Shown here: in pieces, positions 3,629 to 43,667 of the stretch
Layout: every line of letters begins with the position of its first letter
Numbering within the stretch: the first letter of the stretch is position 1
NCBI GenBank assembly: GCA_041738235.1
Contig: JBGSQF010000006.1
Location: 18,261 to 82,260, forward strand
Source: Minisyncoccia bacterium
Lineage (GTDB): Bacteria; Patescibacteriota; Minisyncoccia; Moranbacterales; GCA-2747515
Direction: 5' to 3'
DNA length: 64,000 nt
Made by a program: the position numbers and the translations under genes
Notes under the pieces: generated by a model
Database searches by the model: none
Told to the model about the DNA's origin: nothing
Seen by the model: the letters and a program-made list of their open reading frames with translations, nothing else

Positions 3629-3701
3629 GCGCCCATAGCTCAGCTGGTAGAGCAGTTGGCTCTTAACCAAACGGTCGTAGGTTCGAATCCTACTGGGCGC
3701 A
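3629..3701 (+). tRNA. tRNA-Lys (anticodon CTT)
   Basis: Hand-folded cloverleaf: acceptor gcgccca/tgggcgc, anticodon stem gttgg/ccaaa, loop ctCTTaa, T-loop ttcgaat. Confidence 0.9.
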
Positions 3702-3733
3702 CTAAAGACCTGTGTGAACATCTAATGAATTGA

Positions 3734-3805
3734 GCCCCGATAGCTCAATGGATAGAGCAGGAGTCTTCTAAGCTCTTGATGGGGGTTCGATTCCCTCTCG
3801 GGGTA
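3734..3805 (+). tRNA. tRNA-Arg (anticodon TCT)
   Basis: Acceptor gccccga/tcggggt, anticodon stem ggagt/gctct, loop ctTCTaa, T-arm gggggttcgattccctc. Confidence 0.9.
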
Positions 3806-3842
3806 CACAAAGAGCATTTTGAAGAGTGTGGCAAAGATATAT

Positions 3843-3916
3843 GGCGATTATCGTCTAATGGTTAAGACATCGGTTTGTGGTACCGAGAATCTGGGTTCGA
3901 TTCCCAGTAATCGCCC
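3843..3916 (+). tRNA. tRNA-His (anticodon GTG) with genome-encoded G-1
   Basis: Acceptor gcgatta/taatcgc with an extra 5-prime G pairing C73; anticodon stem tcggt/accga, loop ttGTGgt. Confidence 0.9.
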
Positions 3917-3941
3917 AGGTAGGTCACTGGAAGATATAGGG

Positions 3942-4015
3942 GCGCCCGTAGCTCAGTGGATTAGAGTACTTGGCTTCGAACCAAGGGGTCGCAGGTTCGA
4001 GTCCTGCCGGGCGCA
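3942..4015 (+). tRNA. tRNA-Arg (anticodon TCG)
   Basis: Acceptor gcgcccg/cgggcgc, anticodon stem cttgg/ccaag, loop ctTCGaa, T-loop ttcgagt. Confidence 0.85.
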
Positions 4016-4016
4016 C

Positions 4017-4047
4017 TAAAAAAACCAACCCTAAAGGTTGGTTTTTT
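4017..4047. terminator. Bidirectional intrinsic terminator (ends the tRNA cluster on + and the pilus operon on -)
   Basis: aaaa-AACCAACC-ctaaa-GGTTGGTT-tttttt: perfect 8-bp stem flanked by an A-run and a T-run. Confidence 0.6.
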
Positions 4048-4058
4048 GTAAAAAAAGA

Positions 4059-4358
4059 TCATTCATAAAACAGGTCACGCTTTATAACAGCATTTCCAGA
4101 TGGGATCTTTCTCTCTTCCAAAACATCAAGGATCTCCCCAAACTTCTTCATATCCAAACTTTCTCCTTCTGATTCTAAGATCTTTACTTTTACGGCTTCA
4201 ATATGATCTTGTGGAGCATAAAACATAGTATACCACTCAAATATCCCAAGGCAGGACACTATCATGAATAAAACAAAGAAGATCGATCCCCAATGACGCA
4301 TCCATAGAGATCCTATTCTCTTAAAAAACAAACTGACCTTTCTAACCAGTAAATTCAT
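4059..4358 (-). CDS. Small membrane protein, last gene of the pilus operon (function unknown)
   Basis: 99-aa ORF with one TM helix (SIFFVLFMIVSCLGIF), 61 nt downstream of the pilO-like gene on the same strand. Confidence 0.4.
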   Translation of the reverse strand: MNLLVRKVSLFFKRIGSLWMRHWGSIFFVLFMIVSCLGIFEWYTMFYAPQDHIEAVKVKILESEGESLDMKKFGEILDVLEERKIPSGNAVIKRDLFYE

Positions 4359-4419
4359 AACACCAAAACTTCTTTAAGAATAAATATTGTTCTCCTTGCA
4401 AAAAACTCAACCAGATCAC

Positions 4420-5100
4420 CTAACTCTTCAATTCCCAAAACTGCATAAAAGAAAGCACAGCATTCGTCACAACCTTTTTCCCAGCCGGTACCTGTTCTTG
4501 CTCAGAACTCCCCTCAGAAGAGACTGTAGATTGACCTGCTTCCTGATCTTCTTTTTCCATTTTTATACTCTCAAAAGATGCTACAGGACTCATTCTATCC
4601 AACCGGTCAAGATAACTCATAGTAGCTGAGTATGTTCCGCGGATCTCTACAAAAAACGTGAATTGATTTTTCTCCTGTTCAGCCTGTTCTTTCTTTTCTT
4701 GGTCCGTTCTTGTGTCCTTTGTGGCAACTGGCGTTTTTGCTTTTGGTTTTTTTACGGGTCCCTCTTGAATGTCCAACTTAACCTCAACGCCCGATAACTG
4801 AGCCATTGATTCAAGCTTTTCAATGGTGTTAATAAGGTCCTCCTTTCGCACAAATATATCTTGTAATGCTCCCTCTTTTTCCCGAACGAATTCGTAACGA
4901 CGCAAAATATCTTCCCTTTGTTTTATCTTTTCGGTGTTAATCTCATCACGGGCCAAGAGGTTCTCAACAGAACCTTGCTTCTGTTGCACTGAACGAAAGA
5001 CCCAAAACAGAAAATACGAACCAGCTATTAACCCCACCAAGATAAAGGCGGATGTGATGAAAAAAAATTTAGTATGCGCATTGATCCTCATAAACTCCAA
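4420..5100 (-). CDS. pilO: PilO-like type IV pilus assembly protein (TM plus coiled coil plus Ser/Glu-rich C-terminus)
   Basis: Sits right after pilN; N-terminal TM FFFITSAFILVGLIAGSYFLFWVF then coiled coil. The call rests on position and architecture. Confidence 0.5.
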   Translation of the reverse strand: MEFMRINAHTKFFFITSAFILVGLIAGSYFLFWVFRSVQQKQGSVENLLARDEINTEKIKQREDILRRYEFVREKEGALQDIFVRKEDLINTIEKLESMAQLSGVEVKLDIQEGPVKKPKAKTPVATKDTRTDQEKKEQAEQEKNQFTFFVEIRGTYSATMSYLDRLDRMSPVASFESIKMEKEDQEAGQSTVSSEGSSEQEQVPAGKKVVTNAVLSFMQFWELKS

Positions 5101-5121
5101 AATACAAATAACTCTAAATAA

Positions 5122-5670
5122 TCAGAAACACTTCGGTTGAATCGAAATCTCCATTTCAAAATCGATACTTTCCTTTTGTGCTATCTGAGAAAGAGGCAAC
5201 TTGACATCTGTAAAACACTCGATCTTTTGTAAGCTCTCTTGAAATACCAATAAATTTTCCCGATTATCAGAGTGTCCCACTATCTTTAATTTTCCTTCCT
5301 CTATTGATATGGATGAGAACATAACCCCTCCAGGGGAATTTGATTCTATAGCATGGTATACCCAAATAAGATTCTTCTGTTGCTTTAGTAGCTTCTCGGC
5401 CATTGGGATCTTGGCCTGCACCTGAGAAAACTCTTTCTCATAAAATAAAATGTCAGCATAAGACTTATCCTGTTGTTCCCGCTCAGAGACCCTGTTCAAT
5501 ACGGATCGCTCTTCCAAACTCAATAAAAACCACACACCCGAAAGCAGGCTCCCTAGAAAAATAACCAGAAAAAGGAGCCCCACTTCCTGACGTATCAGGT
5601 CCCGATATAACTTTGAAAGACGGAGGTTTTCCTTTCTTTCAGGGGGAAGAATATTAAGAAATGTCTTCAT
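5122..5670 (-). CDS. pilN: PilN type IV pilus assembly protein
   Basis: N-terminal LNILPPERKEN (PilN LLPxR signature) followed by one TM helix; overlaps the pilM stop. Confidence 0.65.
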   Translation of the reverse strand: MKTFLNILPPERKENLRLSKLYRDLIRQEVGLLFLVIFLGSLLSGVWFLLSLEERSVLNRVSEREQQDKSYADILFYEKEFSQVQAKIPMAEKLLKQQKNLIWVYHAIESNSPGGVMFSSISIEEGKLKIVGHSDNRENLLVFQESLQKIECFTDVKLPLSQIAQKESIDFEMEISIQPKCF

Positions 5671-6745
5671 ATGTATATTGTAATCCCTGCCAAGCGAGTC
5701 CTATGGCTGTTGAGTAACGTAATGCATCTTGATAGGGTATTGTCGGAATAGCCTTTCCCAAATTCATTCGAGCCCATGGATCTCCTCTCTGCACCGTCTT
5801 CCCCAATCTTTTACCAAGGTATACAGGCAGTCCTTCGGTGTTTGCGCCACCACCACATAAAATTACTCTATCAACTGAATGAGAAAATTTTAATCCGCCT
5901 ACAAAAAAATCCATAGACGTTTGAATATGCTGAATAAGATTCTCCATAATGGATTCGACTCCCTGAAACACTGGATCCCTTTTAACAAATGATCCGATTC
6001 CTTGTTCATATTTTATCTTTTCTGCCTCTTCTTGGGGCACGTGTAGGGTCTTGGCTATGGCATCCGTCATCATTTGGGAAGAAAGGGAAATGCTCGACGT
6101 AAAGCATGGTGTTCCTCCAACTGCAAACGTAAACGTGGTCCTTCTATCACCAAAATCCACCACAAGAACCGTTTCAGCGCTGTCCACCTCCTCCGCCAGT
6201 AAGCTTTGAACCTGTGCCACAGATTCAGTGCCCATACCAATTGTCTGCAATCCAGCCAACTCCAGGACACCCAAAAAAGAATCCACTACACCCCTCGCCA
6301 CGGCCACCATCAAAATACTCATCTTCTTTGGATCCTTTGAGAAACTTTTTTGAAGTGGGGTCCAGTCATAATACAACTGATCCAAACCCATTGGAATATT
6401 TTCCTCAACTTGCCATCGAATCGCCTCCTCTAATTGCTCATGTTTCAAAAATGGGACCTCGATAACACGCAAAAAAGATTTTCCTTCAGGTAAAGAACAA
6501 AATACCTTTTTGGTACGGATCCGTGATGCCTTTAAACAGTTCAGTATGGATTCACGAACGCCTTCAGGATTTTTGATTTCTCCATCAACGATATTTCCGG
6601 GGGCAACAGAATAAGAAGCATACCTCGAAACATTACAATGTTTCCCAGAAAGACCCAGTTGGACCACTTTCACAGAAAGATCACTCAGATCAAGTCCAAA
6701 GGGTAATTGTTTAGGAAGAAAGATTGGATCATAAAAAATATTCAT
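5654..6745 (-). CDS. pilM: PilM type IV pilus assembly ATPase-fold (actin-like) protein
   Basis: 363 aa, starts FGLDLSDLSVKVVQL, has the VVDFGDRRTTFTF actin-fold motif, and lies directly upstream of pilN. Confidence 0.75.
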   Translation of the reverse strand: MNIFYDPIFLPKQLPFGLDLSDLSVKVVQLGLSGKHCNVSRYASYSVAPGNIVDGEIKNPEGVRESILNCLKASRIRTKKVFCSLPEGKSFLRVIEVPFLKHEQLEEAIRWQVEENIPMGLDQLYYDWTPLQKSFSKDPKKMSILMVAVARGVVDSFLGVLELAGLQTIGMGTESVAQVQSLLAEEVDSAETVLVVDFGDRRTTFTFAVGGTPCFTSSISLSSQMMTDAIAKTLHVPQEEAEKIKYEQGIGSFVKRDPVFQGVESIMENLIQHIQTSMDFFVGGLKFSHSVDRVILCGGGANTEGLPVYLGKRLGKTVQRGDPWARMNLGKAIPTIPYQDALRYSTAIGLAWQGLQYTYEDIS

Positions 6746-6757
6746 ACCTACAGTATA

Positions 6758-8173
6758 TTATAATTCCTCCCAAAGGTCGATAGCATAATGTGTTCCTGTT
6801 GGAAAGTAAGGAGGCGGAGTATATAAAAAGTTGTTATCATAAACGATATCCCTTGTTGTATATCCCCAATCTTGTGCCCCGTTCGTCCAAGCAAATCCGT
6901 ATCGCCCCCTTGTTGCCAGGGAACCAAACACTGTTATCCTGCTTTTATGATCACTTGTTCCATAATCTGGCCTACCAACTCGCCCATTTTGAGCTATAAG
7001 CGCTGCATCAATCCGCAGATCATCTTCGCTACTCTTTATTACATCAATATTATTTTGTGCTATAAGACCAATCGTTTCGGATCCGTCATAACGAGTATAT
7101 AAAATATCCTTTTTGAGATATATATTTTTTTGACTTCCGCCTGACATATCCGCGGCAACAACCGTTACCATTTTTCCATCAACTCTCCCGTCAACCCAAA
7201 CATCATCCTCTACAAATATCACACCATTGTTAGGTATTGTATACGATGTTGCTGAAGTTTCCTTAGTGATGTCATTATAGGCATCCACGTTCTTCACCTT
7301 ACGAACACTGACTGTACCATTTGAATTTAACGTAATGTGTCTCCCAAGGTTTGAGTCATTAAAATAGAGATTACCATTCGAGCTCCTGTCCGTACAATAT
7401 GATCCCGGTGTCAAGCATCCGGACTCCCCTTTCATAAAAGCAAGATCAGCAGTCACTCCATTAAAACTCGGCCCAGTTTTTGGAAATTCCTTTCCACCAA
7501 GAAACACATCGCTCCCCATATTTGCATTATACTCATTGGTCCAACTAGTCCACACGCCATCTCGCATATCAACCGCAACAGTATCAGGGTCATCGTATGT
7601 CTCTCGAGCACTCGAAATCACATTATGAGCAACCCCATCAAAACGAATCCCGCCATTTGAGTGAATTGGTCCTTGTACCTCCGTCCCGTCCCCGAACCGA
7701 ATATCAGAATCGCATAACACCGAGAATTCACTCCATGACGGTTGTCGAAATCGAACCCTAATAGTTCGAATTCGAGACGGATCCTTGTACAGATATCCAG
7801 TGGATTCAACCATGGCCACTGTTGAATTTCCATTTGGCGGCGTAACCGTGATCGAATACTCTCCAATGCCCTCATATTCGGAAACATAGGGAACATCCAC
7901 ACCAAAAGGAGATCCGTTTTCCCAAAAATCTTGAATCTGTTGCTTTGTTCTCCCCTCGACCTGATGGGCTAAGTACCAACGATAGAAATAGATCCCGGAT
8001 TCAGCAGCATGAAGCGCACGCTCTTGTGTCACCTTTTTGTTGGCATACTGAATCTGTGAGGTTATAACTCGTATAAAACCAGAAAACAAGATAGAGCTAA
8101 TCACCAAAATGATCAGAGTGTATACAAGAACACTTCCCGTAGCATGCTTATTTTTTCTATTGGGCGCGATCAT
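6758..8173 (-). CDS. PilX-like large pseudopilin / pilus-tip protein
   Basis: PilX_N-like hydrophobic start (HATGSVLVYTLIILVISSILFSG) without the Glu+5. Start chosen at MIAPNRKN (8173); the ORF track extends to 8200. Confidence 0.5.
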   Translation of the reverse strand: MIAPNRKNKHATGSVLVYTLIILVISSILFSGFIRVITSQIQYANKKVTQERALHAAESGIYFYRWYLAHQVEGRTKQQIQDFWENGSPFGVDVPYVSEYEGIGEYSITVTPPNGNSTVAMVESTGYLYKDPSRIRTIRVRFRQPSWSEFSVLCDSDIRFGDGTEVQGPIHSNGGIRFDGVAHNVISSARETYDDPDTVAVDMRDGVWTSWTNEYNANMGSDVFLGGKEFPKTGPSFNGVTADLAFMKGESGCLTPGSYCTDRSSNGNLYFNDSNLGRHITLNSNGTVSVRKVKNVDAYNDITKETSATSYTIPNNGVIFVEDDVWVDGRVDGKMVTVVAADMSGGSQKNIYLKKDILYTRYDGSETIGLIAQNNIDVIKSSEDDLRIDAALIAQNGRVGRPDYGTSDHKSRITVFGSLATRGRYGFAWTNGAQDWGYTTRDIVYDNNFLYTPPPYFPTGTHYAIDLWEEL

Positions 8174-8774
8174 ATTCAGAAAGATTACGAATAGAAGCAA
8201 ATGATTGAAAATGAGTGGCCGCCGGAGAGGAACTGGGATTTATATCCACATAAAGATCAATACCGATCATACGAACTACACTAATAGAAAAACTCCCTGT
8301 CAACTCACTATTTCCATTATCATAAAAAGAGAACACGTCTCCCGGATATGGTTCGAAACCGTTTCTTACGTCCGACAAAAAAATACTGACCACTTCTTGA
8401 TTCGTCGGATAAGTAGCCGGACTTCCAACCGGATCAATAATCCCCATACGGAGATTTGTTCCATCAAGAAATATTCGAACACGTTCTATATCTCCATCTT
8501 CATCCTGATCAGCAAAAAAAATCACTTCGGTCGGATCGGCTAATTTCAGAGCATACTCTCCAGCATCTGACTGTCTCATATTCCGGAAAAGTGAAACTAG
8601 AGAGGTAACGGTCTGAGATGCTTTATACTGAGCCTGCGCACTATCTATGGCAAATTGTTGCAAAGGCCAAATATTTACAAAATACAGCACAACACCAAAC
8701 ATTGTCATAGATAATATCCCGATAGCAACGATCATCTCCACCAAGGAGAGTCCTTTGTAAAAATAGTTTTTCAT
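8157..8774 (-). CDS. Type IV pilin-like protein (class III signal peptide)
   Basis: MKNYFYKG|LSLVEMIVAIGIL is a prepilin cleavage motif with Glu at +5. An AAAGGAA RBS lies upstream of the ATG at 8774; the alternative start is 8795. Confidence 0.6.
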   Translation of the reverse strand: MKNYFYKGLSLVEMIVAIGILSMTMFGVVLYFVNIWPLQQFAIDSAQAQYKASQTVTSLVSLFRNMRQSDAGEYALKLADPTEVIFFADQDEDGDIERVRIFLDGTNLRMGIIDPVGSPATYPTNQEVVSIFLSDVRNGFEPYPGDVFSFYDNGNSELTGSFSISVVRMIGIDLYVDINPSSSPAATHFQSFASIRNLSEYDRAQ

Positions 8775-8784
8775 ATAGTTCCTT

Positions 8785-10158
8785 TTAGTCTGCATGGAGA
8801 GAAACAGTTACCTCCTCCAGTCCCACAAGAGTCACGGTCTCAGTTTCAGAATGATATCCAGCTAGATCCACCTGGATATCATACGACTCCCCAAGCGTAA
8901 GCTCATTTGCATTCGTTGGAAAATACCCAAAACCATACAAACCACTCATTTGCGTTGCATCATATAATCCCCCACCCCCCGTAACATGGATTGTTGCTCC
9001 CGGTAACTCCACACCGGAAGCATTGTCTACCACTTTGACAAAAATACCGGGATCCGTTTTCTTGAGTAAGATAATATCAGTACTAACGGTCCCCCCATAA
9101 GGGAATAACACGATTTCAGGGTCATCACCAGACAGGCCTGATTTCCAAAACACGTAGTCTGTTTCACTTGTATCTAAAGAAAAGGTATATGTGCCACCGC
9201 TTCTATCAGTAAAGTGGATGTCTCCATTTTCATCCGATGTACTTGATTCATTTTTATATTCATAATCCGTTGGAAGAGCATTGTTATCAAGTCGCCTCCC
9301 ACCAGATAACAAAAAGGCAATATCAGGAAATGAATTTCCAAAAGGATCTTTTACATGAAAAGTAATATCCGTTAAAGGATTTAATTCAAAATTACCCACA
9401 TTAATAGCTCCATTTGCAACAATAACAGGGGGATTTTTTGGAGGAAACGCCCCCACAGGAGGATACGGAAGAGTCTCCAATGTTTCATACCCAGACTTCG
9501 TAAGGCGTATAGTATACCCAACATCACTCACGGGTACTCCCAGTAAAAACAAATTACCCGTATTATCGGTAGAAAAATTCCCCGCTATCCCAGTGATCGT
9601 CACATGAACACCAGAAACAGGATTACCCGCGTTATTATAAACATTTATCGACAGTGCGCCCGTATTTGGGATCTCCTGTTCAATTCCCGGAGGAACAAAC
9701 CGAGCAACCATCTCCACATGTTGCTCAGAACTTCTCGCTCCCCATTCAACGGAGATAAATACCTTTTTATAATCATTTGGCACAGCATCCGTAGATGTTA
9801 GTAGTGTCCCGTCATTCGGGTCATCTTCATATTGAACGGTAGTGCTAATATAAAAGTGTCCCGTCCCAAAATCCTTCTCTTCATTTGGCACCATAACACA
9901 ATGACTCACACATGAAGGCACGCCCCCATCAAACCCAACGTCTTCATAGGGAAGATTGCGTATTCTCTCCATCTGCTCGTTCGCTAAATTCATTGCTTGT
10001 AAGCGCCTTTGCGCATCCAAAATACGAACCATTCCCAAAGAAAAAGCAGAATAAAATGTTAAAGCCATCACGGAAAATACAAATACAACGATCAAACTCT
10101 CGATAAGGGTCGTGCCCCTCAAATAAAAACGTGCTTGCTTTTTCCCCATACAAAACAA
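8785..10158 (-). CDS. Large (457 aa) minor pilin / pseudopilin with Cna-B/carboxypeptidase-regulatory-like beta-sandwich domains
   Basis: MGKKQARFYLRG|TTLIESLIVVFVF prepilin motif; the C-terminal region has GxxVxGVxVTITGIAG..TDNTGNLFL repeats typical of CarbopepD_reg-like folds. Confidence 0.55.
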   Translation of the reverse strand: MFCMGKKQARFYLRGTTLIESLIVVFVFSVMALTFYSAFSLGMVRILDAQRRLQAMNLANEQMERIRNLPYEDVGFDGGVPSCVSHCVMVPNEEKDFGTGHFYISTTVQYEDDPNDGTLLTSTDAVPNDYKKVFISVEWGARSSEQHVEMVARFVPPGIEQEIPNTGALSINVYNNAGNPVSGVHVTITGIAGNFSTDNTGNLFLLGVPVSDVGYTIRLTKSGYETLETLPYPPVGAFPPKNPPVIVANGAINVGNFELNPLTDITFHVKDPFGNSFPDIAFLLSGGRRLDNNALPTDYEYKNESSTSDENGDIHFTDRSGGTYTFSLDTSETDYVFWKSGLSGDDPEIVLFPYGGTVSTDIILLKKTDPGIFVKVVDNASGVELPGATIHVTGGGGLYDATQMSGLYGFGYFPTNANELTLGESYDIQVDLAGYHSETETVTLVGLEEVTVSLHAD

Positions 10159-10170
10159 AGTTTAACGTCC

Positions 10171-11394
10171 TTATTTTATATTATCCAAAACACTATACAT
10201 TGGCGTAAGCATGGCCACCGCAAAAAAACCAACCCCGGTTCCAATAACGATCATGAGCAATGGTTCTATAATAGATGACATATTTTTGGTCATCTGGTCC
10301 ACATCTGCTTCGTAGAATTCTGCCAATTTCAAAAGAACCTCTTCGGTCTTTCCCGTTGATTCTCCCACTTCAACTATCTGATACACCAAAGGAGGAAATA
10401 CCTTTGACCGAGAAATAGATTCACTCAGATTTATACCCTTTTGAACATCTTCCATGCTCCTCAAAATAGCAGTTCGATAAGCATAATTTGAAAGTGTTTC
10501 CGATATAACACGAAGAGCCTCAACAACAGACACACCACTTTTTAGAAGAGAACTGTATATACGAGCAAAACGAGCAGAGTTGGTCTTTATAACAATTTCT
10601 TTTACTACCGGAAAGTGCAACAAAAGAAACGAGATCACCCTCTTTCCAATTACCGTCTTAGCAAAAAGTGAAAGACAAATAATAATTACTACAACAGCAA
10701 TCGAAACAAGTATAGCGTGCCCCCTTAAAAAATTACTCACTCCGATAATGAACTGAGTGGACGCTGGTAACTTGACCTCCATATCTGAAAACACTGATGT
10801 GATCTTCGGCAAAATATAGGTCAGCATCAATACTCCAACACCGACCATAGCTGTCAAAATAACTGCGGGATACATCATTGCTCCACGAACTTTGCTGATC
10901 AGATCATGTTCTTTCTCTAGCTGAACCGATACGATCACCAAAACTTCTTCTAAATTTCCACCCAACTCTCCCACACGAACCATACTGACAAATAAATTAC
11001 TGAATATATCTGGATATTTTGCCAATGCATCGCCAAGTGGGGTGCCCGATTGGACTCTTTCCGCAATGTCATGAAGTGCTTTTTGGAACCGTTTATTTTT
11101 TGTTTGATTTACAAGAGTATTGATCGCCTTGGTGACCTGTACACCCGATGATATCATGACGCTCAAATTCCTTGCAAAAAGCATCTTGTCCTTTAAAGAA
11201 ACGCCTCCGAAAACCTTATCCATCAATCCCATTGTCTCAGCCGATTGACTCTCTTTCTCCTCCTCGTGAAACGTGAGTAGAAAACCCTCTGAACGCAACT
11301 GATGGAAAAGTGCGCTATCACTTTTTGCAAACATGCTTCCAGTACGCTCTTCTCCCGTGCTTATATTTTGGGCTGTAAATTTGTAATTCGGCAT
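10171..11394 (-). CDS. pilC: Type IV pilus inner-membrane platform protein PilC (GspF family)
   Basis: Two T2SSF-like repeats (LSVMISSGVQV.. and LLKSGVSVVEAL) and three TM segments; follows pilB. Confidence 0.8.
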   Translation of the reverse strand: MPNYKFTAQNISTGEERTGSMFAKSDSALFHQLRSEGFLLTFHEEEKESQSAETMGLMDKVFGGVSLKDKMLFARNLSVMISSGVQVTKAINTLVNQTKNKRFQKALHDIAERVQSGTPLGDALAKYPDIFSNLFVSMVRVGELGGNLEEVLVIVSVQLEKEHDLISKVRGAMMYPAVILTAMVGVGVLMLTYILPKITSVFSDMEVKLPASTQFIIGVSNFLRGHAILVSIAVVVIIICLSLFAKTVIGKRVISFLLLHFPVVKEIVIKTNSARFARIYSSLLKSGVSVVEALRVISETLSNYAYRTAILRSMEDVQKGINLSESISRSKVFPPLVYQIVEVGESTGKTEEVLLKLAEFYEADVDQMTKNMSSIIEPLLMIVIGTGVGFFAVAMLTPMYSVLDNIK

Positions 11395-11403
11395 ATTTTT
11401 GTT

Positions 11404-13173
11404 TTATTCTTTGGTAACACGCAATATCTCCTCTATGGAGGTGATCCCGAGAGCTGCCTTGATCATACCATCCTCTACCATTGTATGCATACCTGCTTTT
11501 CTTGATTCTAACTCAATATCCTCAGAAGAGGCTTTCTCAACGATCATCCTCCTGATAGTATCGTCTACCTCCATTACCTCAAATACTCCGTTTCTCCCCC
11601 GATACCCCTCATTGTTACAGCGAGCACACCCTTGTGCTCGGTAAAAAGAAACGTCCTCCCATGTTTGAATTTTCTTTTGCTTTGCAACTGAAGATTTTTG
11701 TAAAACGGCAAGTATTTCTTTCATGTTGAAACTCTCTCCTAATGTCTTCAGTTCCTCGGATGTTAATACGTAGGACTTCCGACAATCCGGACATAATCTT
11801 CGCACTAGTCTCTGTGCAATAATGACGTTCAACGTAGTCGCGACCAAGAATGGTTCGGCGCCCATATCCAACATTCTTGGTATCGTGGCAACAGCACTAT
11901 TCGTATGGAGCGTAGAAAGCACAAGATGTCCTGTCATAGCAGCATGCATGGCAATTTCCATGGTCTCTCCATCACGTATCTCCCCTACCATGATAATATC
12001 TGGATCCTGACGTAGTAACGAACGAAGTGCTGCTGCAAACGTCATGCCAATTTTTGATACTACCTGCGTTTGATTGATGCGTTGCATTCGATATTCAACA
12101 GGGTCTTCTACAGTACTAATATTCACTTCCGGGGTGTTAAGAATATCAACTACCGTGTAGAGCGTGGTAGTTTTCCCAGAACCCGTTGGCCCTGTAACCA
12201 ATATCATCCCGTTCGGCTTTTTTACCTCTCGATGCATGACTTCCAGATCTCGTCCCTCAAACCCGATCTTTTCCAAAGTGAGTCCCTTGGATGATTCATC
12301 CAAAAGACGCATAACGATCTTTTCACCGTCAAACACCGGTAAAATACTCACACGAAAAGAGATCTTATACCCTTCAGTTTCTATTTTAAACCTCCCATCC
12401 TGAGGTAATCTATGCTCATCCAACTTTAAGTTTGACAGCACTTTTATACGAGCAACAATGCCTTGTTGTACACTTCTCGGTAAACTCATAGCATCATGCA
12501 ATACCCCATCGATACGATATCGAACAACTACTTCTCTTTCTGTTGGTTCAATATGAATATCACTCGCCTGTTGCAAAATTGCATGTTTCAACAACGTATC
12601 TACAATACGAATGACAGGAACGTCCTCAGCAACTTTCTCCAAACTTTTTACATCACCATCTTCCTCCGGCTGATCGCTCTTTGCAGACTCGGAAAGAGAC
12701 TCTACATCCTGATCGATCAAATCTCCAAATTCCGCTTGTAAACTTTTTTCATATTGTTTCAATATTTCCGTAATACTTTCCTGTGAAGTGAGACAGGGAA
12801 TGATACGGAGACCCGTCTTCTTTTGAATGAAATCGATCGTCTGTAAATCATTCGGATTGAGCATGGCAACTTTAAGATTGCTTCCCTCCTTCTCAAATGC
12901 AACAATATTATATTTCTTGGCAATTGGAGCTGGAATGATCTGTAAAATATTTACAGGAATCTCATTCTTTTCCAAGTTCACAAAAGGGATCCCCAAGATC
13001 AATGAGTAGATCTTTCGTAGCTTCGTATCTTGAATAAATCCTCCTTTCAATAACACTTCTCCCAAAGAAACACCCTCTTTTTGAGAGGTGTCCCACGAAG
13101 CCTTAAGATCTTCCTTATTAAGAAAGTCAGCCCCCTGAAGAAACTCATAAAGTTGTTTATCCTGAATCTTCAT
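11404..13173 (-). CDS. pilB: Type IV pilus assembly ATPase PilB (GspE family)
   Basis: N-terminal MshEN-like domains, Walker A VTGPTGSGKTTTLY, Asp and His boxes, and a tetracysteine cluster CPDC...CARC. Confidence 0.85.
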   Translation of the reverse strand: MKIQDKQLYEFLQGADFLNKEDLKASWDTSQKEGVSLGEVLLKGGFIQDTKLRKIYSLILGIPFVNLEKNEIPVNILQIIPAPIAKKYNIVAFEKEGSNLKVAMLNPNDLQTIDFIQKKTGLRIIPCLTSQESITEILKQYEKSLQAEFGDLIDQDVESLSESAKSDQPEEDGDVKSLEKVAEDVPVIRIVDTLLKHAILQQASDIHIEPTEREVVVRYRIDGVLHDAMSLPRSVQQGIVARIKVLSNLKLDEHRLPQDGRFKIETEGYKISFRVSILPVFDGEKIVMRLLDESSKGLTLEKIGFEGRDLEVMHREVKKPNGMILVTGPTGSGKTTTLYTVVDILNTPEVNISTVEDPVEYRMQRINQTQVVSKIGMTFAAALRSLLRQDPDIIMVGEIRDGETMEIAMHAAMTGHLVLSTLHTNSAVATIPRMLDMGAEPFLVATTLNVIIAQRLVRRLCPDCRKSYVLTSEELKTLGESFNMKEILAVLQKSSVAKQKKIQTWEDVSFYRAQGCARCNNEGYRGRNGVFEVMEVDDTIRRMIVEKASSEDIELESRKAGMHTMVEDGMIKAALGITSIEEILRVTKE

Positions 13174-13188
13174 GTCGGTTTATACAAT

Positions 13189-14214
13189 CTATTTTATTTC
13201 ACAGTTACCCAACTTTCTCGGAAAAACCAAGAAGAAGGTTGTCCCTCGTCCTTTTTTCGACTCAAATCGAATGCTTCCTCCAACCCGATCCATAATCCTC
13301 TGGCATAAATTCAATCCCAATCCAACCCCCTCGGTATTTAATAACATGGCATTATCAGATCGAAAGAACTTTTCAAAGATCTTCCCCTGATGCTCTATGG
13401 GTATACCTATTCCCGTATCTTTGATATCCACCTCGATCTCTTTCTCCTTGTTACGTATGTAAAGAGATATCGTTCCAGACCGGTCTGTATACCGCAAAGC
13501 ATTAAGAAAGACGTTTTCTAAAACCATCTCTATTTTTCTTGCATCCCCGCAGGATTCTTTCTCTTCTCCAAATACTTCAAAAAGAAGTCGAATATTCTTT
13601 TGCTGTATATCCATGCGGTAACGGTCACAGACCTTTTTCATGAGATTCGAGATGTTTATACGCTCCTCATACCATCGAACTTCCCCACTTTCAAATCGAG
13701 ATACCATTAGAAACTCATCCACCATTCGTATAAGATGTTCGTTTGATAACTCAATACTGCGCATAGCCTCACGAGATCCATCATTTCCATCCCCACTATT
13801 TTTACTTCTACAAAGATCAATATGCCATTTTATCTGCGCAAGTGGCGATTTTAATCTATGTGACATAGCCGATATAAAATCACTCTTGAGCTTTCTAATA
13901 ACGGCGATCTCCTCTAACAAACGAATGATAAGACCTCCAATAAGCAGTGATGACATGACTATCCCAGATTCTATAAGAACTAGCGCCTCAGCATTATTAG
14001 AATAAGAAAATATAAGGTATGTTGCCCCCATGAAGAAAATAACCACAGCACCCAAAAGCAAAGAAAAAAACGCCGGCGTATGCCACAAGGAAACGCCGAG
14101 TTGTTTGGCCTGCTTTCGAAGGTCTAAACCTGACTCAATAGGAAGAAAAGGGGAATGCATATGTATCTTTTTTTTACTGTCAATTCTCTTTTTATTATAC
14201 CCTAAACACCACAC
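13189..14214 (-). CDS. Membrane sensor histidine kinase (HisKA plus HATPase_c), no cognate response regulator in the window
   Basis: H-box SAMSHRLKSPLAQI, N-box NALRYT, G-boxes DTGIGIP and GVGLGLNLC; TM helices at the N-terminus. Confidence 0.75.
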   Translation of the reverse strand: MWCLGYNKKRIDSKKKIHMHSPFLPIESGLDLRKQAKQLGVSLWHTPAFFSLLLGAVVIFFMGATYLIFSYSNNAEALVLIESGIVMSSLLIGGLIIRLLEEIAVIRKLKSDFISAMSHRLKSPLAQIKWHIDLCRSKNSGDGNDGSREAMRSIELSNEHLIRMVDEFLMVSRFESGEVRWYEERINISNLMKKVCDRYRMDIQQKNIRLLFEVFGEEKESCGDARKIEMVLENVFLNALRYTDRSGTISLYIRNKEKEIEVDIKDTGIGIPIEHQGKIFEKFFRSDNAMLLNTEGVGLGLNLCQRIMDRVGGSIRFESKKGRGTTFFLVFPRKLGNCEIK

Positions 14215-14232
14215 ACACCCCTAAGAGCAACT

Positions 14233-15540
14233 CTACTCAAAAAGTTTCTTATAGTTCTTCGACCAATACACAATGCCATTATAATAGGATGTATTGAACC
14301 CTCCAAGATAGTTGATCGATGCACTTTTTATAACTGATTCCTTGCTCGATGTGGCTCCTGCCTTTTGCAATTTAAGGGCCATAGCCATAACACCATCAGT
14401 AAGACTCCAGGGATCCGGTTTGCTATGACCCGTCTTTGATCGTACTGATGCTTCATATCCTTTCCATACGTCCGACATAAATTGAGAAACACCCATCGCG
14501 CCACCTTGACCAATATACCCACTTGGAGAACAAGAGACCTTTTTGTCCTTACTATAACCAAGCGTCTTCACGATCTCATAAAAAATATCTCTTCTTTTAT
14601 ACAGTAAATTTATCGATGATTGATATTTGGTTCCATACTTTTTATACCGGGCAACGGCAACCTTCTCCACCTCTTTGTAAGTACACTGTCCTGTGTTTGC
14701 TCCAAGATTCGTTTCCATCTTCAAAAATCCATACAACACCCCTTCAGGAACGCCCGTTTCATCACTCGCAAAATTCACCGCTTCACGGATGTCCTTCGCA
14801 TTAAATGACTTCCCGGTCAATATATTCAAATCACTTTCTAATTCCGCCAACTTTTTTTGCAGCTCTTCAATGGTCGCATCTTTCTCTGCTATATCAGACT
14901 GCGTTTCCTGCTTTGCTCCCAAAAGGTTATTCTTTTGGGAATTTTGAACAACAAGGAGTTGCTCCTTTTCCTTCTTGATATTATCTAGGTCCTCACGTTC
15001 TTTTTTGATATTTTCTTTTGTTTTAGATGATTCATCAATAAGCATGCCTATTCGCTCTTGCAGAGTAAGCACCTGATCCGATCCGTCTAATATCTGGGAC
15101 ATGCTTCCCTCATGAAACACCACTTCTGAAAGCGGAGTTTGCGAGGTATCATACATTAATTGCACCATATCCTGGAGCACTTTCTTTTGCTGACCAAGCT
15201 TCACCTCTAATTGAGCTATTTCTCCCTCCTTACGAGAGATCGTCTCTTGCGTGGTTTCAATGTGGGTCTTAGTCTCTTGTATTGCTCGCTGTGTTGCTGT
15301 CAAACTCCCATCGATCGCCTGGAGATTTTGAGAGAGACTCGTTTTTTCTTTGGTTACTTTATCGATCTTCTTCTCAAGATCTTTGATATCACCTTTTGTT
15401 TCGTCTATTTTATCGGGGTTTATCTCATCCGCCAAAGCTGGAAAAGAGATACAAAAAACTATCCCCAGACCTATCATTAAAAGACCTGAGAACAAGAAGG
15501 ATCCCCCCTTATCCTTGTGAGAATTATTCCAATGTTTCAT
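14233..15540 (-). CDS. Secreted coiled-coil protein with a C-terminal MltB-like lytic murein transglycosylase domain
   Basis: Signal peptide (LLMIGLGIVFCISFPALA), about 200 aa of heptad-rich coiled coil, then the GAMGVSQFMSDVW motif typical of MltB-family transglycosylases. Start set at MKHWNN (15540); the ORF track extends to 15591. Confidence 0.55.
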   Translation of the reverse strand: MKHWNNSHKDKGGSFLFSGLLMIGLGIVFCISFPALADEINPDKIDETKGDIKDLEKKIDKVTKEKTSLSQNLQAIDGSLTATQRAIQETKTHIETTQETISRKEGEIAQLEVKLGQQKKVLQDMVQLMYDTSQTPLSEVVFHEGSMSQILDGSDQVLTLQERIGMLIDESSKTKENIKKEREDLDNIKKEKEQLLVVQNSQKNNLLGAKQETQSDIAEKDATIEELQKKLAELESDLNILTGKSFNAKDIREAVNFASDETGVPEGVLYGFLKMETNLGANTGQCTYKEVEKVAVARYKKYGTKYQSSINLLYKRRDIFYEIVKTLGYSKDKKVSCSPSGYIGQGGAMGVSQFMSDVWKGYEASVRSKTGHSKPDPWSLTDGVMAMALKLQKAGATSSKESVIKSASINYLGGFNTSYYNGIVYWSKNYKKLFE

Positions 15541-15626
15541 GCCTAAAGTATAGCACATTTTTTCAATTTTTGAAAAACAAAAGACCCGCAATGGAACTAT
15601 GCGGGTCTTTTTCCTTGAAAACTAGA

Positions 15627-17337: not shown

Positions 17338-20300
17338 TCACACCAGCCACTTCTTCACCAACAATCCACCTTTTTCCATAGTGATAGTGTCTTGAGCATC
17401 TCTGGATTCCCCTGTAGCAGGATTTTGGACAGAGACTTTAACAGTATATACTCCAGCCTCAAGAAAAATAAGATAGCGCCCATGTTCATCAGCCATAGTT
17501 CTTGAAAGCATGCGCTCGTTTTTATCAAATACCGAGATAGTGGTAAACACAAGTCCCTTTTGGGAAAATCTTTCCTTAGAAACTACTTCTCCCCACTGAC
17601 GACTCTTATTTGTAAACTGCCTCACAAAGAAGAGGGCAATGTTAAAGAGTAAAAGCACCCAATAGGCAAGGTTACCACGATCAATAATAACAGCATACAT
17701 GGTCCAGAAAAAACTCACCACAAAAACAATAAAGAAAAAGGAATTGAGCCATACAGAAACATTAAAGAAACCAAGAAAACTAGAGGACCTTCTGATATCC
17801 GGCTTTCTTACAAGTATATTACAACGAATAAACTCTTTATTGGTTACCACAATGGGATCTCCCCGGTAAATATTAGTAATAAAAATAGAAGAGTTCTGTG
17901 TTTCTTTTTCAAAGGTATACCCTTCCTTCTCTGCTTGGATGGTGTAGGTACCGGGATCGACCAGAAAGCCGAAGCGTCCGAGCCTATCGGAGATGATGAC
18001 CTGTTTCTTTTGGGTCTGTTGGTTGATGAGCGTTAACGTGACGTAAGAAAGGATATTGCCCGTATTGGCGTCATAGGTCGTTCCCCAGGATCGTTTTCGA
18101 CGAAAGAACCCAACGATCCCGAAAGCACTTACCATTTGTTGTGTCAAACCTCGCGCAGTTAAGAGCCCAGGAGAAAATACCGACCCAAAAGATCGAAACA
18201 ACGTAGCTATGACCGCTGCTAACGTCAGTGTCTCAGCCGAAGACTCAGGATCCTTCGCCATCTCCTTGACAGCTGCAATAGCAGAACTTCCCATATTATC
18301 AATAAACTCTGGAGTAACTGCTGTAACTGCATGTCCAAGAGTACGAAGTCCTTTTGCAACTACTTCCTCTTGTGTTTGCTTTTGAATTTCATCACTCTTT
18401 AAAACAAAGGTTTTTGTTTCTGACCCTTCCGATGTCATATTGTTCTCATCGGTATAGGTAACATAAATAGTATGAACTCCCTGCTCAATGTCCTTATCCT
18501 TCATAACATATTCAATACTCCAGTGAGTATCAGCGCGCCCCGTAAAGCTAAAAGGACTAGAAAAAATATAAGCGGTAAGCGACCCAGGACCATCGGCCAT
18601 CCCCTTAACAATAAGTGTAGAATCTTTTCTCTCTATAGAAGTAACAGTTGGTGGTTTAGGAATGACGGTAACATTGAGAGAAGCTGTTCTTTTGACAGAT
18701 GTTGCGCTTGTAACACTTGCTTCTACAACATGAAGACCAGTGGTAGGGAACCTATAAGCAAAAGAATTCTCTTTGGAAACCACAACACCATCGACCGCCC
18801 AGGCATATGTATACGTACCGCTTTTATCTGGAAAGACTTGAAAGGTCGCCTCTTGCCCCTTTTCAAGTCGTTCTCTTGACGATGAGGCAGAGACGGAGAA
18901 ATTCTCTTCCTCACTATCCTTTTCTGGTATTATAATACGCCTCCCATTAGAGAATGCGCTCCTCGTTGACCCCTTATAAGCTCTCACGCGATATGTATAA
19001 GTCGCTCCAGGAACAAGAGTTTCAGTATCAATATATAGGATCTTATTCTTTTTGACAGTGGCGATCTCCTTAAAAGCATCACTCCCCTGTCTTCGTTGAA
19101 TACTATAACCATTCTCTAAATCAGTGTTGTCTTGCCATACAAGTCGAATGCCCTTCTCAACCCGCCTAATCCTGAGATTGGTGGGGCGTTGCTCTTGATC
19201 AACAAGAGAGAGCGCTTTTCTATAGATAGTTCCCGCATCACCTGATTGATATCCATTTCCTCCATCAACATTCTTAGTTCCTGTAAAAGTGCTTCTGTTA
19301 TAGTAAAGTGCAATTCTTCCCCCGCCTCCACCACCACCATGCGATCCTCCAACACCTCCCCGAGCACTAATAGATCCGCTCCCAGCAAATAAATTAGCTT
19401 GAAGATGCACAGACCCACCGGAACCACCCCCAGCATAGTCTCCCTCTCCGTCACTCCCATCCGCCACAATACTTCCACCAAGACTTATAGGGCCTGTCAC
19501 CGCTATTTTGACGGCTCCTGCTCCCGATCCACTCAATTGTGCGTCTCCAGATCCCCCACTTGACCCAATATCTGTTGGTTGTGTATCCGAACCGTACGAA
19601 GATCCTCCAAAAGTAGATGAATGGTCACCCACACCCCCCCTTCCTCCGAATCCGCCTCCGCCACCGCCAAAACCCCTCCCGGGACCATTTCCTTCACCAA
19701 AAGAGGTGGAAGTTCCAATATATCCCTTCCCGCTTACATCTATCTTCCCTCCCACATTGATCACAAGCCTTGCAAGAGAAAGATTGATCCCCTTGGTTTG
19801 GTTAACAACGTTAGCTTGATGCGTAAGAGTACCCCCTTTCGCAACCCGCATAGAATTAAAAGAAACTGCTGGTCCCAAGATATCTTGATTCTGAAATTCC
19901 ATGATCCCAAGAACAATAATATCCTTAATAGGCTGAACATCTCCAATGGCAGGATTAACACCATTTTCATACCAGGTAACATTTGCAGAAATAGTTAATG
20001 TAGATTGATAATGGTTATAGATGCCATTGTTAGTGATACTTGCAGCAGTCAACAAGGAAAGTTTTTCTTTCACAGTGATTGTGTAATCGTGCGCGATGAC
20101 ATATCTAGCTGAACCACGAACAGTGAGATGATTAAATACTGACGATTCAACAATGGTCGTAGTGGATCCAGAAACAGCACCATTTCCAACAACAAGATCC
20201 CCATACGTAGCAGAATTTGATTTGATAAAAATAGTTCCAGCCCCCCCTCGCTGATAGCCCGCTCCGCCAAATGCAGTCCTTATTCCATTAAAAGTATCGT

Positions 20301-21192
20301 CATTCGCATAATAAATAGCCAACCTTCCACCACCTCCGCCACCCTCCTCAGTTCCTCCAGAAGCACCCCCGTCAACTCTAATATCACCACTGCCGGCAAG
20401 TGTGCCCACAGTAAGATAGATAGATCCTCCTGATCCGCCTCCAGCGTCACCACTTCCATCACTCCCCTTCGAATAAATATTTCCCTCTATAGTAAGTGTT
20501 CCGGAAACATTCAATCTTATGACACCACCACCAGACCCACCAATACCGCTATAAGCCCCTCCGCTCGATCCAATGTCCGTTGGCTGGGCAACAGAACCAT
20601 ACGTGACACCCCCAACCGCTTCAGATGCATTTCCTCCATTACCACCGAAACCAGCACCGGAACCGGTAGAAGACCCCTTTACTCCTTTTCCTGGTCCATT
20701 ACCATTATCGGCACTTGCCCCCGCATACCCCTTTCCCGTCACACTTACTGTTCCACCACTTCTTACCGTCATATCACCTCCCACCTCTAGAAAGAGAGAA
20801 TGGATATGTGTAGTAGTATTGGCTGTATGTGTAAGTATTCCCAACTCTCCGATAATGACATCATTCGTAACAATAAGCTTTTTCGTATCTACATCTCCAT
20901 TCTCGATGGTAAAAGTCGAAGTTGTATTCTCTCCAATTGAAAGCGACTGTATTGTTATGGGTCCACCAGAAAGATCGATCGTCGGTTGATTCGTGCCTCC
21001 GTCTATGACAACGTCATCACCACTTTGGGGAGTGGTTGAAGCACAACTGCTCCAGTTAGAAGAGTTGCTCCAGTCTGTAGAAGAAGATCCTGTCCAAGTA
21101 CAGGTACCTGCATAAACCGGAAGTGCGCCAGAAAAAACCCCAAACACACTGAGGTAAAAAAATATAAAAAGAAAGTTTTGTTTTTTCTGCAT
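17338..21192 (-). CDS. Giant (1284 aa) secreted/membrane-anchored surface protein: signal peptide, two tandem Gly-rich beta-solenoid-like modules, FN3/PKD-like region, TM helices flanked by carboxypeptidase-regulatory-like domains
   Basis: Signal peptide FLFIFFYLSVFGVFSGALPVYA. A duplicated module of about 200 aa (..GKGY.G..GNGPG.G....YGS..QPTDIGSSGG...GSDG.GD.GGGSGGS..L.....GSG.I...GG..GGGGGGR.A.YY..) occurs twice. TM cluster FFFIVFVVSFFWTMYAVII. Two CarbopepD_reg-like segments (GTYTIQAEKEGYTFEKE and GVYTVKVSVQNP). Confidence 0.6.
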   Translation of the reverse strand: MQKKQNFLFIFFYLSVFGVFSGALPVYAGTCTWTGSSSTDWSNSSNWSSCASTTPQSGDDVVIDGGTNQPTIDLSGGPITIQSLSIGENTTSTFTIENGDVDTKKLIVTNDVIIGELGILTHTANTTTHIHSLFLEVGGDMTVRSGGTVSVTGKGYAGASADNGNGPGKGVKGSSTGSGAGFGGNGGNASEAVGGVTYGSVAQPTDIGSSGGAYSGIGGSGGGVIRLNVSGTLTIEGNIYSKGSDGSGDAGGGSGGSIYLTVGTLAGSGDIRVDGGASGGTEEGGGGGGRLAIYYANDDTFNGIRTAFGGAGYQRGGAGTIFIKSNSATYGDLVVGNGAVSGSTTTIVESSVFNHLTVRGSARYVIAHDYTITVKEKLSLLTAASITNNGIYNHYQSTLTISANVTWYENGVNPAIGDVQPIKDIIVLGIMEFQNQDILGPAVSFNSMRVAKGGTLTHQANVVNQTKGINLSLARLVINVGGKIDVSGKGYIGTSTSFGEGNGPGRGFGGGGGGFGGRGGVGDHSSTFGGSSYGSDTQPTDIGSSGGSGDAQLSGSGAGAVKIAVTGPISLGGSIVADGSDGEGDYAGGGSGGSVHLQANLFAGSGSISARGGVGGSHGGGGGGGRIALYYNRSTFTGTKNVDGGNGYQSGDAGTIYRKALSLVDQEQRPTNLRIRRVEKGIRLVWQDNTDLENGYSIQRRQGSDAFKEIATVKKNKILYIDTETLVPGATYTYRVRAYKGSTRSAFSNGRRIIIPEKDSEEENFSVSASSSRERLEKGQEATFQVFPDKSGTYTYAWAVDGVVVSKENSFAYRFPTTGLHVVEASVTSATSVKRTASLNVTVIPKPPTVTSIERKDSTLIVKGMADGPGSLTAYIFSSPFSFTGRADTHWSIEYVMKDKDIEQGVHTIYVTYTDENNMTSEGSETKTFVLKSDEIQKQTQEEVVAKGLRTLGHAVTAVTPEFIDNMGSSAIAAVKEMAKDPESSAETLTLAAVIATLFRSFGSVFSPGLLTARGLTQQMVSAFGIVGFFRRKRSWGTTYDANTGNILSYVTLTLINQQTQKKQVIISDRLGRFGFLVDPGTYTIQAEKEGYTFEKETQNSSIFITNIYRGDPIVVTNKEFIRCNILVRKPDIRRSSSFLGFFNVSVWLNSFFFIVFVVSFFWTMYAVIIDRGNLAYWVLLLFNIALFFVRQFTNKSRQWGEVVSKERFSQKGLVFTTISVFDKNERMLSRTMADEHGRYLIFLEAGVYTVKVSVQNPATGESRDAQDTITMEKGGLLVKKWLV

Positions 21193-26810: not shown

Positions 26811-26849
26811 AGGCGTTTAGAAATATTTGAGATATTCAAATAAAAACCA

Positions 26850-42680: not shown

Positions 42681-42863
42681 ATGTATAATCGATATTTAAA
42701 CAAAAAACGTTTTTCTACGTCTCCTGGATTATAAAGACAAATAAGGAAAAAGTCAACAGCCAAGAATAAAAAACCAATACCCCTACAAATAGCACGGTTT
42801 CCCACAACTAAAAGTAAAGGTGCCAGATCCGATCCAGCCATTCACATTTTATAACCTACCTTG

Positions 42864-42934
42864 CAGGAGTGGAAGGAATCGGACCCTCGTATCAGGTTTT
42901 GGAGACCTGCGTTCTACCACTGAACTACACTCCC
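42864..42934 (-). tRNA. tRNA-Trp (anticodon CCA)
   Basis: Minus-strand cloverleaf: acceptor gggagtg/cactcct, anticodon stem caggt/acctg, loop ctCCAaa, discriminator G. Confidence 0.9.
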
Positions 42935-43040
42935 ATATGCACAACTCAATCCTATGAAAAAAGCACTCTTCTACTATACACAATTTTCTTCCAAAGAAAA
43001 AGAGGGTGCGCGATCTAGCAACCTCTTTTCTCAAGAAAGA

Positions 43041-43205
43041 CTACTTTACCTCTCGAAACTCCACATGAGACCGAGTAAGAGGACAATATCTTTTTTGCAC
43101 TAACTTCACTTGTATCTTTTTCTTATTCCGCTTTGTAAAATAGGTAATTCCAGGACAGTCCTTACTTCGAAGCTTGACCAACCTTTCTTTATACTTTGTT
43201 GCCAT
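43041..43205 (-). CDS. rpmG: 50S ribosomal protein L33 (54 aa; absent from the ORF track because it is under 60 aa)
   Basis: Translation MATKYKERLVKLRSKDCPGITYFTKRNKKKIQVKLVQKRYCPLTRSHVEFREVK; the C-terminus Y.P..R.HV.F.E.K matches L33 (E. coli ..KFDPVVRQHVIYKEAK). Confidence 0.75.
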   Translation of the reverse strand: MATKYKERLVKLRSKDCPGITYFTKRNKKKIQVKLVQKRYCPLTRSHVEFREVK

Positions 43206-43370
43206 ACTCTCTTACGTTAAAACAGCTTATTACACACTTCTGCCTCTTCTTCTCAAAGGGGAAAATCCAAAACCTTTCCCCAACGATACCCGAACAAAAG
43301 AGAAAAGTCAAGAAAACGATTCGTAGACTAGTCAAAAAAATTCTTCACAAAAAACCATCTGCGATATATG

Positions 43371-43443
43371 AGCCGAGATCGGGAATCGAACCCGAGACCT
43401 CATCCTTACCATGGATGCGCTCTACCGACTGAGCTATCTCGGC
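43371..43443 (-). tRNA. tRNA-Thr (anticodon GGT)
   Basis: Acceptor gccgaga/tctcggc, anticodon stem catcc/ggatg, loop atGGTaa. Confidence 0.9.
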
Positions 43444-43499
43444 ATTTAAAACACCGCACAACCTCCTTTATAAAAGGTTGAGAAGCAAAAGGATCTCTG

Positions 43500-43582
43500 T
43501 GGGCAGGGAGGGATTCGAACCCCCGTAGACCGAAGTCGGCAGATTTACAGTCTGCTGCGATTGACCGCTCCGCCACCTACCC
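43500..43582 (-). tRNA. tRNA-Tyr (anticodon GTA), long variable arm
   Basis: Acceptor gggtagg/cctgccc, anticodon stem gcaga/tctgc, loop ctGTAaa, 14-nt variable arm, T-loop ttcgaat. Confidence 0.9.
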
Positions 43583-43667
43583 ATTCATACAACTCTCTTT
43601 CTACACTATTTTCCTCCTTTGGGCAAATATGCCACCACATCATCACCAAATACCCGTTACTTTTCTG

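Follow-up and report, generated by a model that had tools for sequence, protein, structure and literature searches.

We analyzed a 64,000-nucleotide (nt) stretch of DNA (the window) from a Minisyncoccia bacterium (contig JBGSQF010000006.1, positions 18,261 to 82,260), and found 11 co-directional genes on the minus strand (4059-15540) between two intrinsic terminators. This locus is a genuine, well-conserved type IV pilus (T4P) assembly operon of an ultra-small, Moranbacteria-like bacterium from the candidate phyla radiation (CPR). We consider it likely that the locus serves monoderm, Moranbacteria-related Patescibacteria as the core operon for assembling a type IVa-like pilus, and that its three pilin-like proteins of 454, 205 and 471 amino acids (aa) form a priming or tip complex, not the shaft. 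This reading is based on matches of the machinery genes to curated families, the bounds set by the two terminators, synteny among relatives, the class assignment of the pilins, and the literature.

Family calls were made with curated Pfam and NCBIfam models on the open reading frames (ORFs) of the window (Table 1). They confirmed the ORFs and families listed in a first-pass annotation of the sequence, which had described a single-strand T4P operon of ten genes at 4059-15591. We count eleven genes, and a different start for the first one. The 5' boundary of the operon is marked by the rplL terminator at 15579-15611, and the longest-ORF start (TTG 15591) falls within its hairpin. Therefore, the first gene most likely begins at ATG 15540. 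A TGnTATACT -10-like element ends only 6 nt before this ATG, indicating that the operon mRNA may be leaderless. At the other end, the strong bidirectional terminator previously placed at 4017-4047 was recovered as a 13-bp stem, which is common to the pilus operon and a convergent four-tRNA cluster ending at 4016. A consensus terminator scanner missed both terminators, with the T-tract absorbed into the stem, and folding confirmed both. The genes had been described as separated by overlaps or gaps of at most 20 nt, but the last intergenic gap, ahead of the 99-aa gene, is 61 nt. Two tRNA clusters were found in the window, at 3629-4016 (plus strand, Lys-Arg-His-Arg) and 42863-43740 (minus strand, Trp-Thr-Tyr-Thr).

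Table 1. Features of the pilus operon and its boundaries, in positions of the window, in the direction of transcription
Feature	Position	Strand	Evidence
Intrinsic terminator of the upstream rplJ-rplL unit	15579..15611	-	Fold -21.6 kcal/mol, z -4.67, 0/200 shuffles as stable
Candidate promoter-like site, TTTTCA-18-TATACT with TG extension	15547..15576	-	Consensus scan; pattern match only
Coiled-coil, membrane-anchored protein with C-terminal SLT_2/MltB-like lytic transglycosylase, 435 aa from ATG 15540	14233..15540	-	PF13406
Sensor histidine kinase with two transmembrane (TM) helices	13189..14214	-	HisKA and HATPase_c
PilB-type extension ATPase with MshEN N-terminal domain	11404..13173	-	PF00437 450 bits, PF05157 61 bits
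PilC/GspF platform protein	10171..11394	-	PF00482, two T2SSF stretches, 199.7 bits
454-aa modular minor pilin, GspI/PilV/ComGE-like pilin module (~1-158) and three beta-sandwich modules	8785..10149	-	Class III signal, Pfam, NCBIfam
205-aa GspJ/PilW-class minor pilin	8157..8774	-	Class III signal (K-G/LSLVE), fold class; weak N_methyl match
471-aa GspK/PilX-class minor pilin with ice-binding-protein-type beta-solenoid	6758..8173	-	G at -1, Tyr at +5
PilM, actin-like alignment protein	5654..6745	-	PF11104 PilM_2 156.5 bits; TIGR01175 184.9 bits vs 133 cutoff
PilN	5122..5670	-	PF05137 31.2 bits vs 22.8 cutoff
PilO-like bitopic protein	4420..5100	-	Position and weak profile evidence
99-aa single-TM protein, last gene of the unit	4059..4358	-	No family match
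Bidirectional intrinsic terminator (A-run, 13-bp stem, T-run)	4019..4047	.	Fold -14.8 kcal/mol, z -2.9

The machinery genes place the operon among type IVa pilus (T4aP) systems, with a PilB core carrying an MshEN domain, a two-repeat PilC, and a PilM-PilN-PilO module in which PilO is recognized weakly. The best NCBIfam match of PilB is TIGR02538 (610.9 bits, below the equivalog cutoff of 675.65). While the earlier calls of pilM and pilN were confirmed, the pilO call stands as a weak assignment. An orthologue profile of the PilO-like protein matches M. xanthus PilO (3jc8_O) at an E-value of 5.7e-4, and PF04350 is present in 5/13 of its orthologues. The PilO-like, 99-aa and 471-aa proteins of the window themselves gave no Pfam match at E<=10. 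Of 39 related loci, 12 have an orthologue of the 99-aa gene at the equivalent position.

Two further genes stand at the head of the operon. The first encodes a protein with an SLT_2 domain (PF13406, 40.7 bits vs 24.3 cutoff) and sub-threshold matches to EnvC-like coiled coils and MltB, and a gene of this kind also heads the operon in a related locus (L002). The second encodes a histidine kinase whose two TM helices are joined by a linker of ~8 residues, with no HAMP domain and no sensor or extracytoplasmic domain. Its second helix carries a membrane-embedded Glu (LVLIESGIV) that is kept in 14/14 aligned orthologues (from loci including L002, L019, L022, L025, L032, L034, L037, L038, L064, L067, L076 and L081), a feature that may fit PilS-like intramembrane sensing. 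In about 30 related loci, the kinase gene is the immediate upstream neighbor of pilB. A search of the window, including a small-ORF scan, revealed no response regulator.

To evaluate conservation, we scanned one genome per GTDB species with PilB as the seed, and mapped companion genes with phmmer using the eleven window proteins. An earlier scan with a 9-sequence alignment of the 454-aa family had returned 124 pattern matches and no relative; the PilB seed then succeeded. We identified 80 loci at 64-69% identity, nearly all labelled Moranbacteria/Moraniibacteriota or Parcubacteria/Patescibacteria. The gene order kinase-pilB-pilC-454-205-471-pilM-pilN-(pilO) is identical in 34 GTDB species representatives. 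An ENA contig also carries the entire operon, including the SLT gene, at about 55% identity and in different flanking sequence. The trio of pilin genes is intact in Woesebacteria GW2011_GWA1_45_8 (448/203/473 aa, about 30% identity), flanked by a divergent pilM and, at its other end, by pilB-pilC. Here, a 130-aa pilin with a GFTIIE start closes the pilM gene string adjoining the trio, which makes it most likely that the large proteins are a tip or priming complex. The remaining 46/80 PilB loci have no companions (pilC, pilins, pilMNO) within 10 kb. At one of these (L009, 9884-11749), a lone pilB sits between groEL and a relA/spoT-type gene; some others have only the SLT gene upstream, and some may be short contigs.

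To characterize the pilin-like proteins, we scanned all six frames of the 64 kb for G-x4-E motifs leading into an uncharged, hydrophobic stretch. Exactly two such starts lie on real ORFs, at 10116 (R-G/TTLIESLIV, 454-aa protein; the slash marks the predicted cleavage) and 8753 (K-G/LSLVEMIV, 205-aa protein). Written at full length, these class III signals read R-G/TTLIESLIVVFVF and K-G/LSLVEMIVAIGIL. This agrees with the first-pass annotation, which had given two of the three proteins a G/xxxxE signal and the third a PilX_N-like start. The third start reads KHATG/SVLVYTLIILV in the 471-aa protein. Across its family, G(-1) is present in 52/56 members, and position +5 is Y/F in all 57 members with a residue there, and never Glu; PF14341 (PilX_N) was found in several homologues.

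The 454-aa protein combines an N-terminal pilin module with beta-sandwich modules. With the ORF at 8785-10158 (457 aa) started at the 454-aa position, its product is identical to P0001 as called by others. G12 and E/D17 are conserved in the family. Beta-sandwich repeats had been proposed for this protein, and one of the domains exceeds its Pfam threshold (PF13620 CarboxypepD_reg, residues 170-228, 37.4 bits vs 32.3 cutoff), while the second (SpaA-like, 261-326) and third (~374-445) are sub-threshold. Among 12 members of the family, the N-module (~158 residues) matched ComGE in 9 (best 5e-9), PilV in 8, GspI in 5 and XpsI in 3, all sub-threshold; ComGE, PilV, GspI and XpsI are all I-class proteins. 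A profile of the N-module searched against 1.84 billion representatives gave 447 clusters at E<=1e-30, the majority of whose members measure 440-470 aa or more. In the top 150 proteins, 131 carry G-x4-[ED], and the lengths are 400-519 aa (74 proteins), 520-659 aa (29), 660-819 aa (14) or longer (9). The relatives form length classes of about 450, 590, 740 and >820 aa (up to about 1550), which suggests a variable number of appended beta-sandwich modules. Thus, enlarged I-class pilins with a variable module number appear to be common in this region of the tree. In the PDB, profile searches found nothing significant for the 454-aa family, its N-module, or the 471-aa family.

The 205-aa protein shows a GspJ-type two-sheet pilin fold on its class III N-terminal helix. 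It had been asked at first whether this protein could be a conventional major pilin, and the GspJ-like fold speaks against that. The 471-aa protein has the features of the GspK/PilX class: Gly(-1), no Glu5, a pilin fold with an extra domain, and a gene that follows the I and J genes. It also has a ComZ-type architecture, a GspK-like pilin domain with an ice-binding-protein-type beta-solenoid, and is probably a ComZ-like tip subunit. The solenoid additionally gave tapirin-like matches. At least 3285 proteins belong to the family, with ~50% identity across Moranbacteria. The three genes thus appear to be in the canonical order of the GspI, GspJ and GspK classes, separated by a 10-nt gap and then a 17-nt overlap. 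A ComZ-type architecture in a conserved Moranbacteria PilX-like family is possibly unreported; ComZ occurs in none of the 15 top-ranked of 435 papers matched in a literature search, which is weak evidence of absence.

The window lacks several pilus components, as had been noted before. A phmmer search with PilB against all ORFs found no second PilB/PilT-type ATPase in the 64 kb, and Peptidase_A24 (PilD) and secretin had no Pfam match among the ~50 further window ORFs scanned. Beyond the trio, the six-frame motif scan and the small-ORF scan revealed no small pilin-like ORF in the 64 kb. Similarly, the 34 syntenic Moranbacteria-type loci contain no small pilin or second ATPase at a distance of up to 10 kb from pilB. 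The first-pass annotation took these gaps as a property of the system, a view that is not supported. In the Saccharibacteria strain TM7x (Nanosynbacter lyticus), the genes for pilins, PilT and PilD are distributed among four loci (PMC11623550), so their absence from one 64-kb window says little. A secretin is not expected in a monoderm cell without an outer membrane. Dispersed loci and a monoderm envelope would explain these absences, and the major pilin, PilD and PilT are probably encoded elsewhere in the genome.

The mechanism that we propose leans on the established knowledge of GspIJK and FimU-PilVWX. The trio would be cleaved by a prepilin peptidase (PilD) encoded elsewhere, and the 454-aa, 205-aa and 471-aa proteins would join by their N-terminal helices, forming a heterotrimeric priming complex on PilC. 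Without Glu5 and with a bulky beta-solenoid, the 471-aa K-class protein would sit on top and cap the complex. A small major pilin encoded elsewhere would then polymerise beneath the cap, and the trio would be left at the tip of the fibre. The 471-aa protein would display its beta-solenoid there, and the 454-aa protein its chain of beta-sandwiches, as ligand-binding modules. The SLT transglycosylase would probably open the peptidoglycan locally for the fibre, and the two-TM kinase, which has no sensor domain, probably links expression of the pilus genes to a membrane signal. In previous studies, a steric argument allowed only a tip position for ComZ (PMC6561018), and modular pilins were argued to be tip-exposed (PMC8179133). 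The most likely role of these displayed modules would be attachment to a host cell or surface. We chose adhesion because of the analogy with PilX2 of TM7x, the tapirin-like matches of the solenoid and the strongly acidic trio; the main alternative, suggested by the ComZ match of the 471-aa protein, is DNA capture.

Several points weigh against the priming/tip reading. No H-class (GspH/FimU/ComGD) minor pilin was found at the locus. The putative GspI-class assignment of the 454-aa protein comes from sub-threshold sequence matches only. The likeness of the 471-aa protein to Thermus thermophilus ComZ (PDB 6qvi; PMC6561018) and to GspK is at the level of the fold only, with 10-15% identity, no profile-HMM match and a global TM-score of only ~0.3. 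All three pilins are acidic, with isoelectric points (pI) of 4.4-5.3 and net charges of -11 to -31. Finally, the existence of a major pilin, PilD and PilT elsewhere in the genome is something that we infer.

The alternative that survives best is a competence pilus, in which the same machine captures DNA, the 471-aa protein is the receptor, the 454-aa protein is its partner, and retraction delivers the DNA to ComEC. It follows the ComZ-PilA2 proposal in Thermus, and the ligand is its sole difference from the priming/tip reading. We regard it as possible, though unlikely. The fold does not transfer function; the authors of the ComZ study found no functional clue in the solenoid fold. The 471-aa protein and ComZ also show no detectable sequence homology: structural alignments give 13-14% identity, and when a profile built from 58 members of the family was searched against the PDB, no chain of ComZ came up at E<=10. 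As a result, the DNA-contacting ComZ lysines K98 and K233 are not mappable. The acidity of the three pilins argues against DNA binding as well, and no comEA, comEC or dprA turned up among the window ORFs scanned. In addition, TM7x mutants in the pilins of its second pilus (T4P-2) kept wild-type transformation rates (PMC11623550). We also considered that the 471-aa family is the Patescibacterial counterpart of ComZ as a tip DNA receptor. With the enlarged I-class pilin, it would form the front end of the DNA and nucleotide scavenging that these auxotrophic, ultra-small bacteria rely on, and the kinase would be PilS-like and sense the membrane pilin load. We find this rather doubtful. A ComG competence system was tried and rejected: ComGA scored 253.5 bits (below 300) and covered only PilB residues 193-458, ComGB scored 151 (below 240), and PilM and PilN are present.

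It is very unlikely that there is no small major pilin and that the fibre is built from the 454-aa and/or 471-aa proteins, or from the 205-aa protein. Such a shaft would fit with the lack of a small pilin in the window and near pilB in the 34 loci, and with the canonical G/xxxxE signal of the 454-aa protein; a shaft location of modular pilins is possible with a flexible linker (PMC8179133). However, the 205-aa protein is GspJ-like and not major-pilin-like, and the 471-aa protein has no Glu5 and an architecture that was judged in ComZ to be sterically incompatible with a shaft (PMC6561018). The tight packing of the trio genes in I-J-K order and the 130-aa pilin beside the same trio in Woesebacteria also count against it, as do the dispersed pilin loci documented in Patescibacteria (PMC11623550). 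Of the earlier suggestion that large subunits build the shaft or tip, the tip is favored and the shaft is not supported.

A type II secretion-like pseudopilus, a short, non-exposed piston with an I-J-K tip for protein export through the wall, is highly improbable: the trio matches type II secretion system (T2SS) pseudopilin structures best, and the GspE and GspF models score nearly equal to the PilB and PilC models, but TIGR02538 PilB scores above GspE, the alignment proteins PilM_2 and PilN are of the T4aP type, and the window ORFs scanned gave no match to GspL, GspM, GspC or a secretin. The likeness to T2SS pseudopilins is not diagnostic, because Thermus T4P minor pilins resemble them too. 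Pili have also been seen by cryo-electron tomography on CPR cells, including TM7x, which counts against a pseudopilus. A T2SS proper was rejected on the same lack of secretin, GspC, GspL and GspM family matches.

Outside the operon, a 1284-aa predicted surface protein is encoded at 17338-21192 (minus strand), with a Sec-type start, two Gly-rich beta-helix-like repeat regions, fn3, PKD and CarboxypepD_reg domains, and hydrophobic segments near its C-terminus. It was considered as a part of the pilus and rejected: its start is of the Sec type, it has no pilin N-terminus, and it is parted from the operon by rpsP, rplJ, rplL and the terminator. At 24900-28133 (minus strand), a 636-aa coupling-protein ATPase of the TrwB/TraG type, which has a treble-clef zinc finger, adjoins a 427-aa protein without a family match. 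Two other ORFs, at 56238-58634 (plus strand, 798 aa) and 55039-55818 (minus strand, 259 aa), had no Pfam match at E<=0.001. The plus-strand GC skew is negative in every 2-kb bin (about -0.1 to -0.27), and the minus strand carries most of the genes, which fits a window within one replichore, with genes co-oriented with replication.

CPR/Patescibacteria are a large, mostly uncultured part of bacterial diversity, and pili are thought to be their main tool for host finding and DNA uptake. To our knowledge, only the pilus systems of Saccharibacteria have been tested so far. The operon described here is a very stable one in a second major CPR lineage, and its three likely tip pilins are recognisable, two by fold and the 454-aa protein tentatively by sequence. 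The best-conserved pilin, the 471-aa protein, shares its architecture with ComZ, the only tip DNA receptor characterised structurally. The trio therefore provides concrete proteins to express and assay for DNA, glycan or host binding.

We compared the locus with known systems. Thermus, the source of ComZ and of the type IV-like pilin TTHA1219 (PDB 5g23), is a diderm with a PilQ secretin, and the I-class partner at our locus has three extra beta-sandwich modules. In comparison with the GspI-GspJ-GspK tip complex (PDB 3ci0, 5vtm) and FimU-PilVWX, the I member here is 3-4x the size of GspI and the K member about 1.5x that of GspK. The inserted or appended domains differ, no H-class member is present here, and the machinery context is T4aP-type; the complex itself is inferred at our locus. 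The modular pilins PilB and PilC of Streptococcus sanguinis (PMC8179133) resemble the 454-aa protein in that a small class III pilin module is fused to display modules, and both belong to monoderm T4P. The S. sanguinis proteins display vWA or lectin modules, whereas the 454-aa protein carries tandem CarboxypepD_reg/prealbumin-like beta-sandwiches, in classes of ~450, 590 and 740 aa. CPR modular pilins were already included in that survey (PMC8179133).

The comparison with Saccharibacteria T4P loci, which the first-pass annotation had proposed, identified TM7x (T4P-1/T4P-2; PMC11623550) as the closest described system, with scattered loci. TM7x has a small PilA in addition to PilV/W/X (PMC11623550). 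The accessory domains of TM7x are jelly-roll-like (PilX1) or a beta-propeller (PilX2), whereas our locus, from a Moranbacteria-like phylum, has a beta-solenoid. Unlike TM7x, the V-class pilin here is enlarged by beta-sandwich modules, the operon opens with an SLT transglycosylase and a histidine kinase, PilA, PilT and PilD are absent from the locus, and the system is known from its genes alone. The second TM7x locus, like ours, is without PilT. Both systems belong to Patescibacteria and have T4aP-like PilB, PilC, PilM, PilN and PilO, no secretin, and PilV/W/X-type minor pilins. In both, PilX is the largest of these, has an accessory domain and no canonical PilD signal, and is the proposed tip. 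PilB, PilT, PilM and PilC are widely conserved across Patescibacteria (PMC11623550), and the operon is no new kind of machine.

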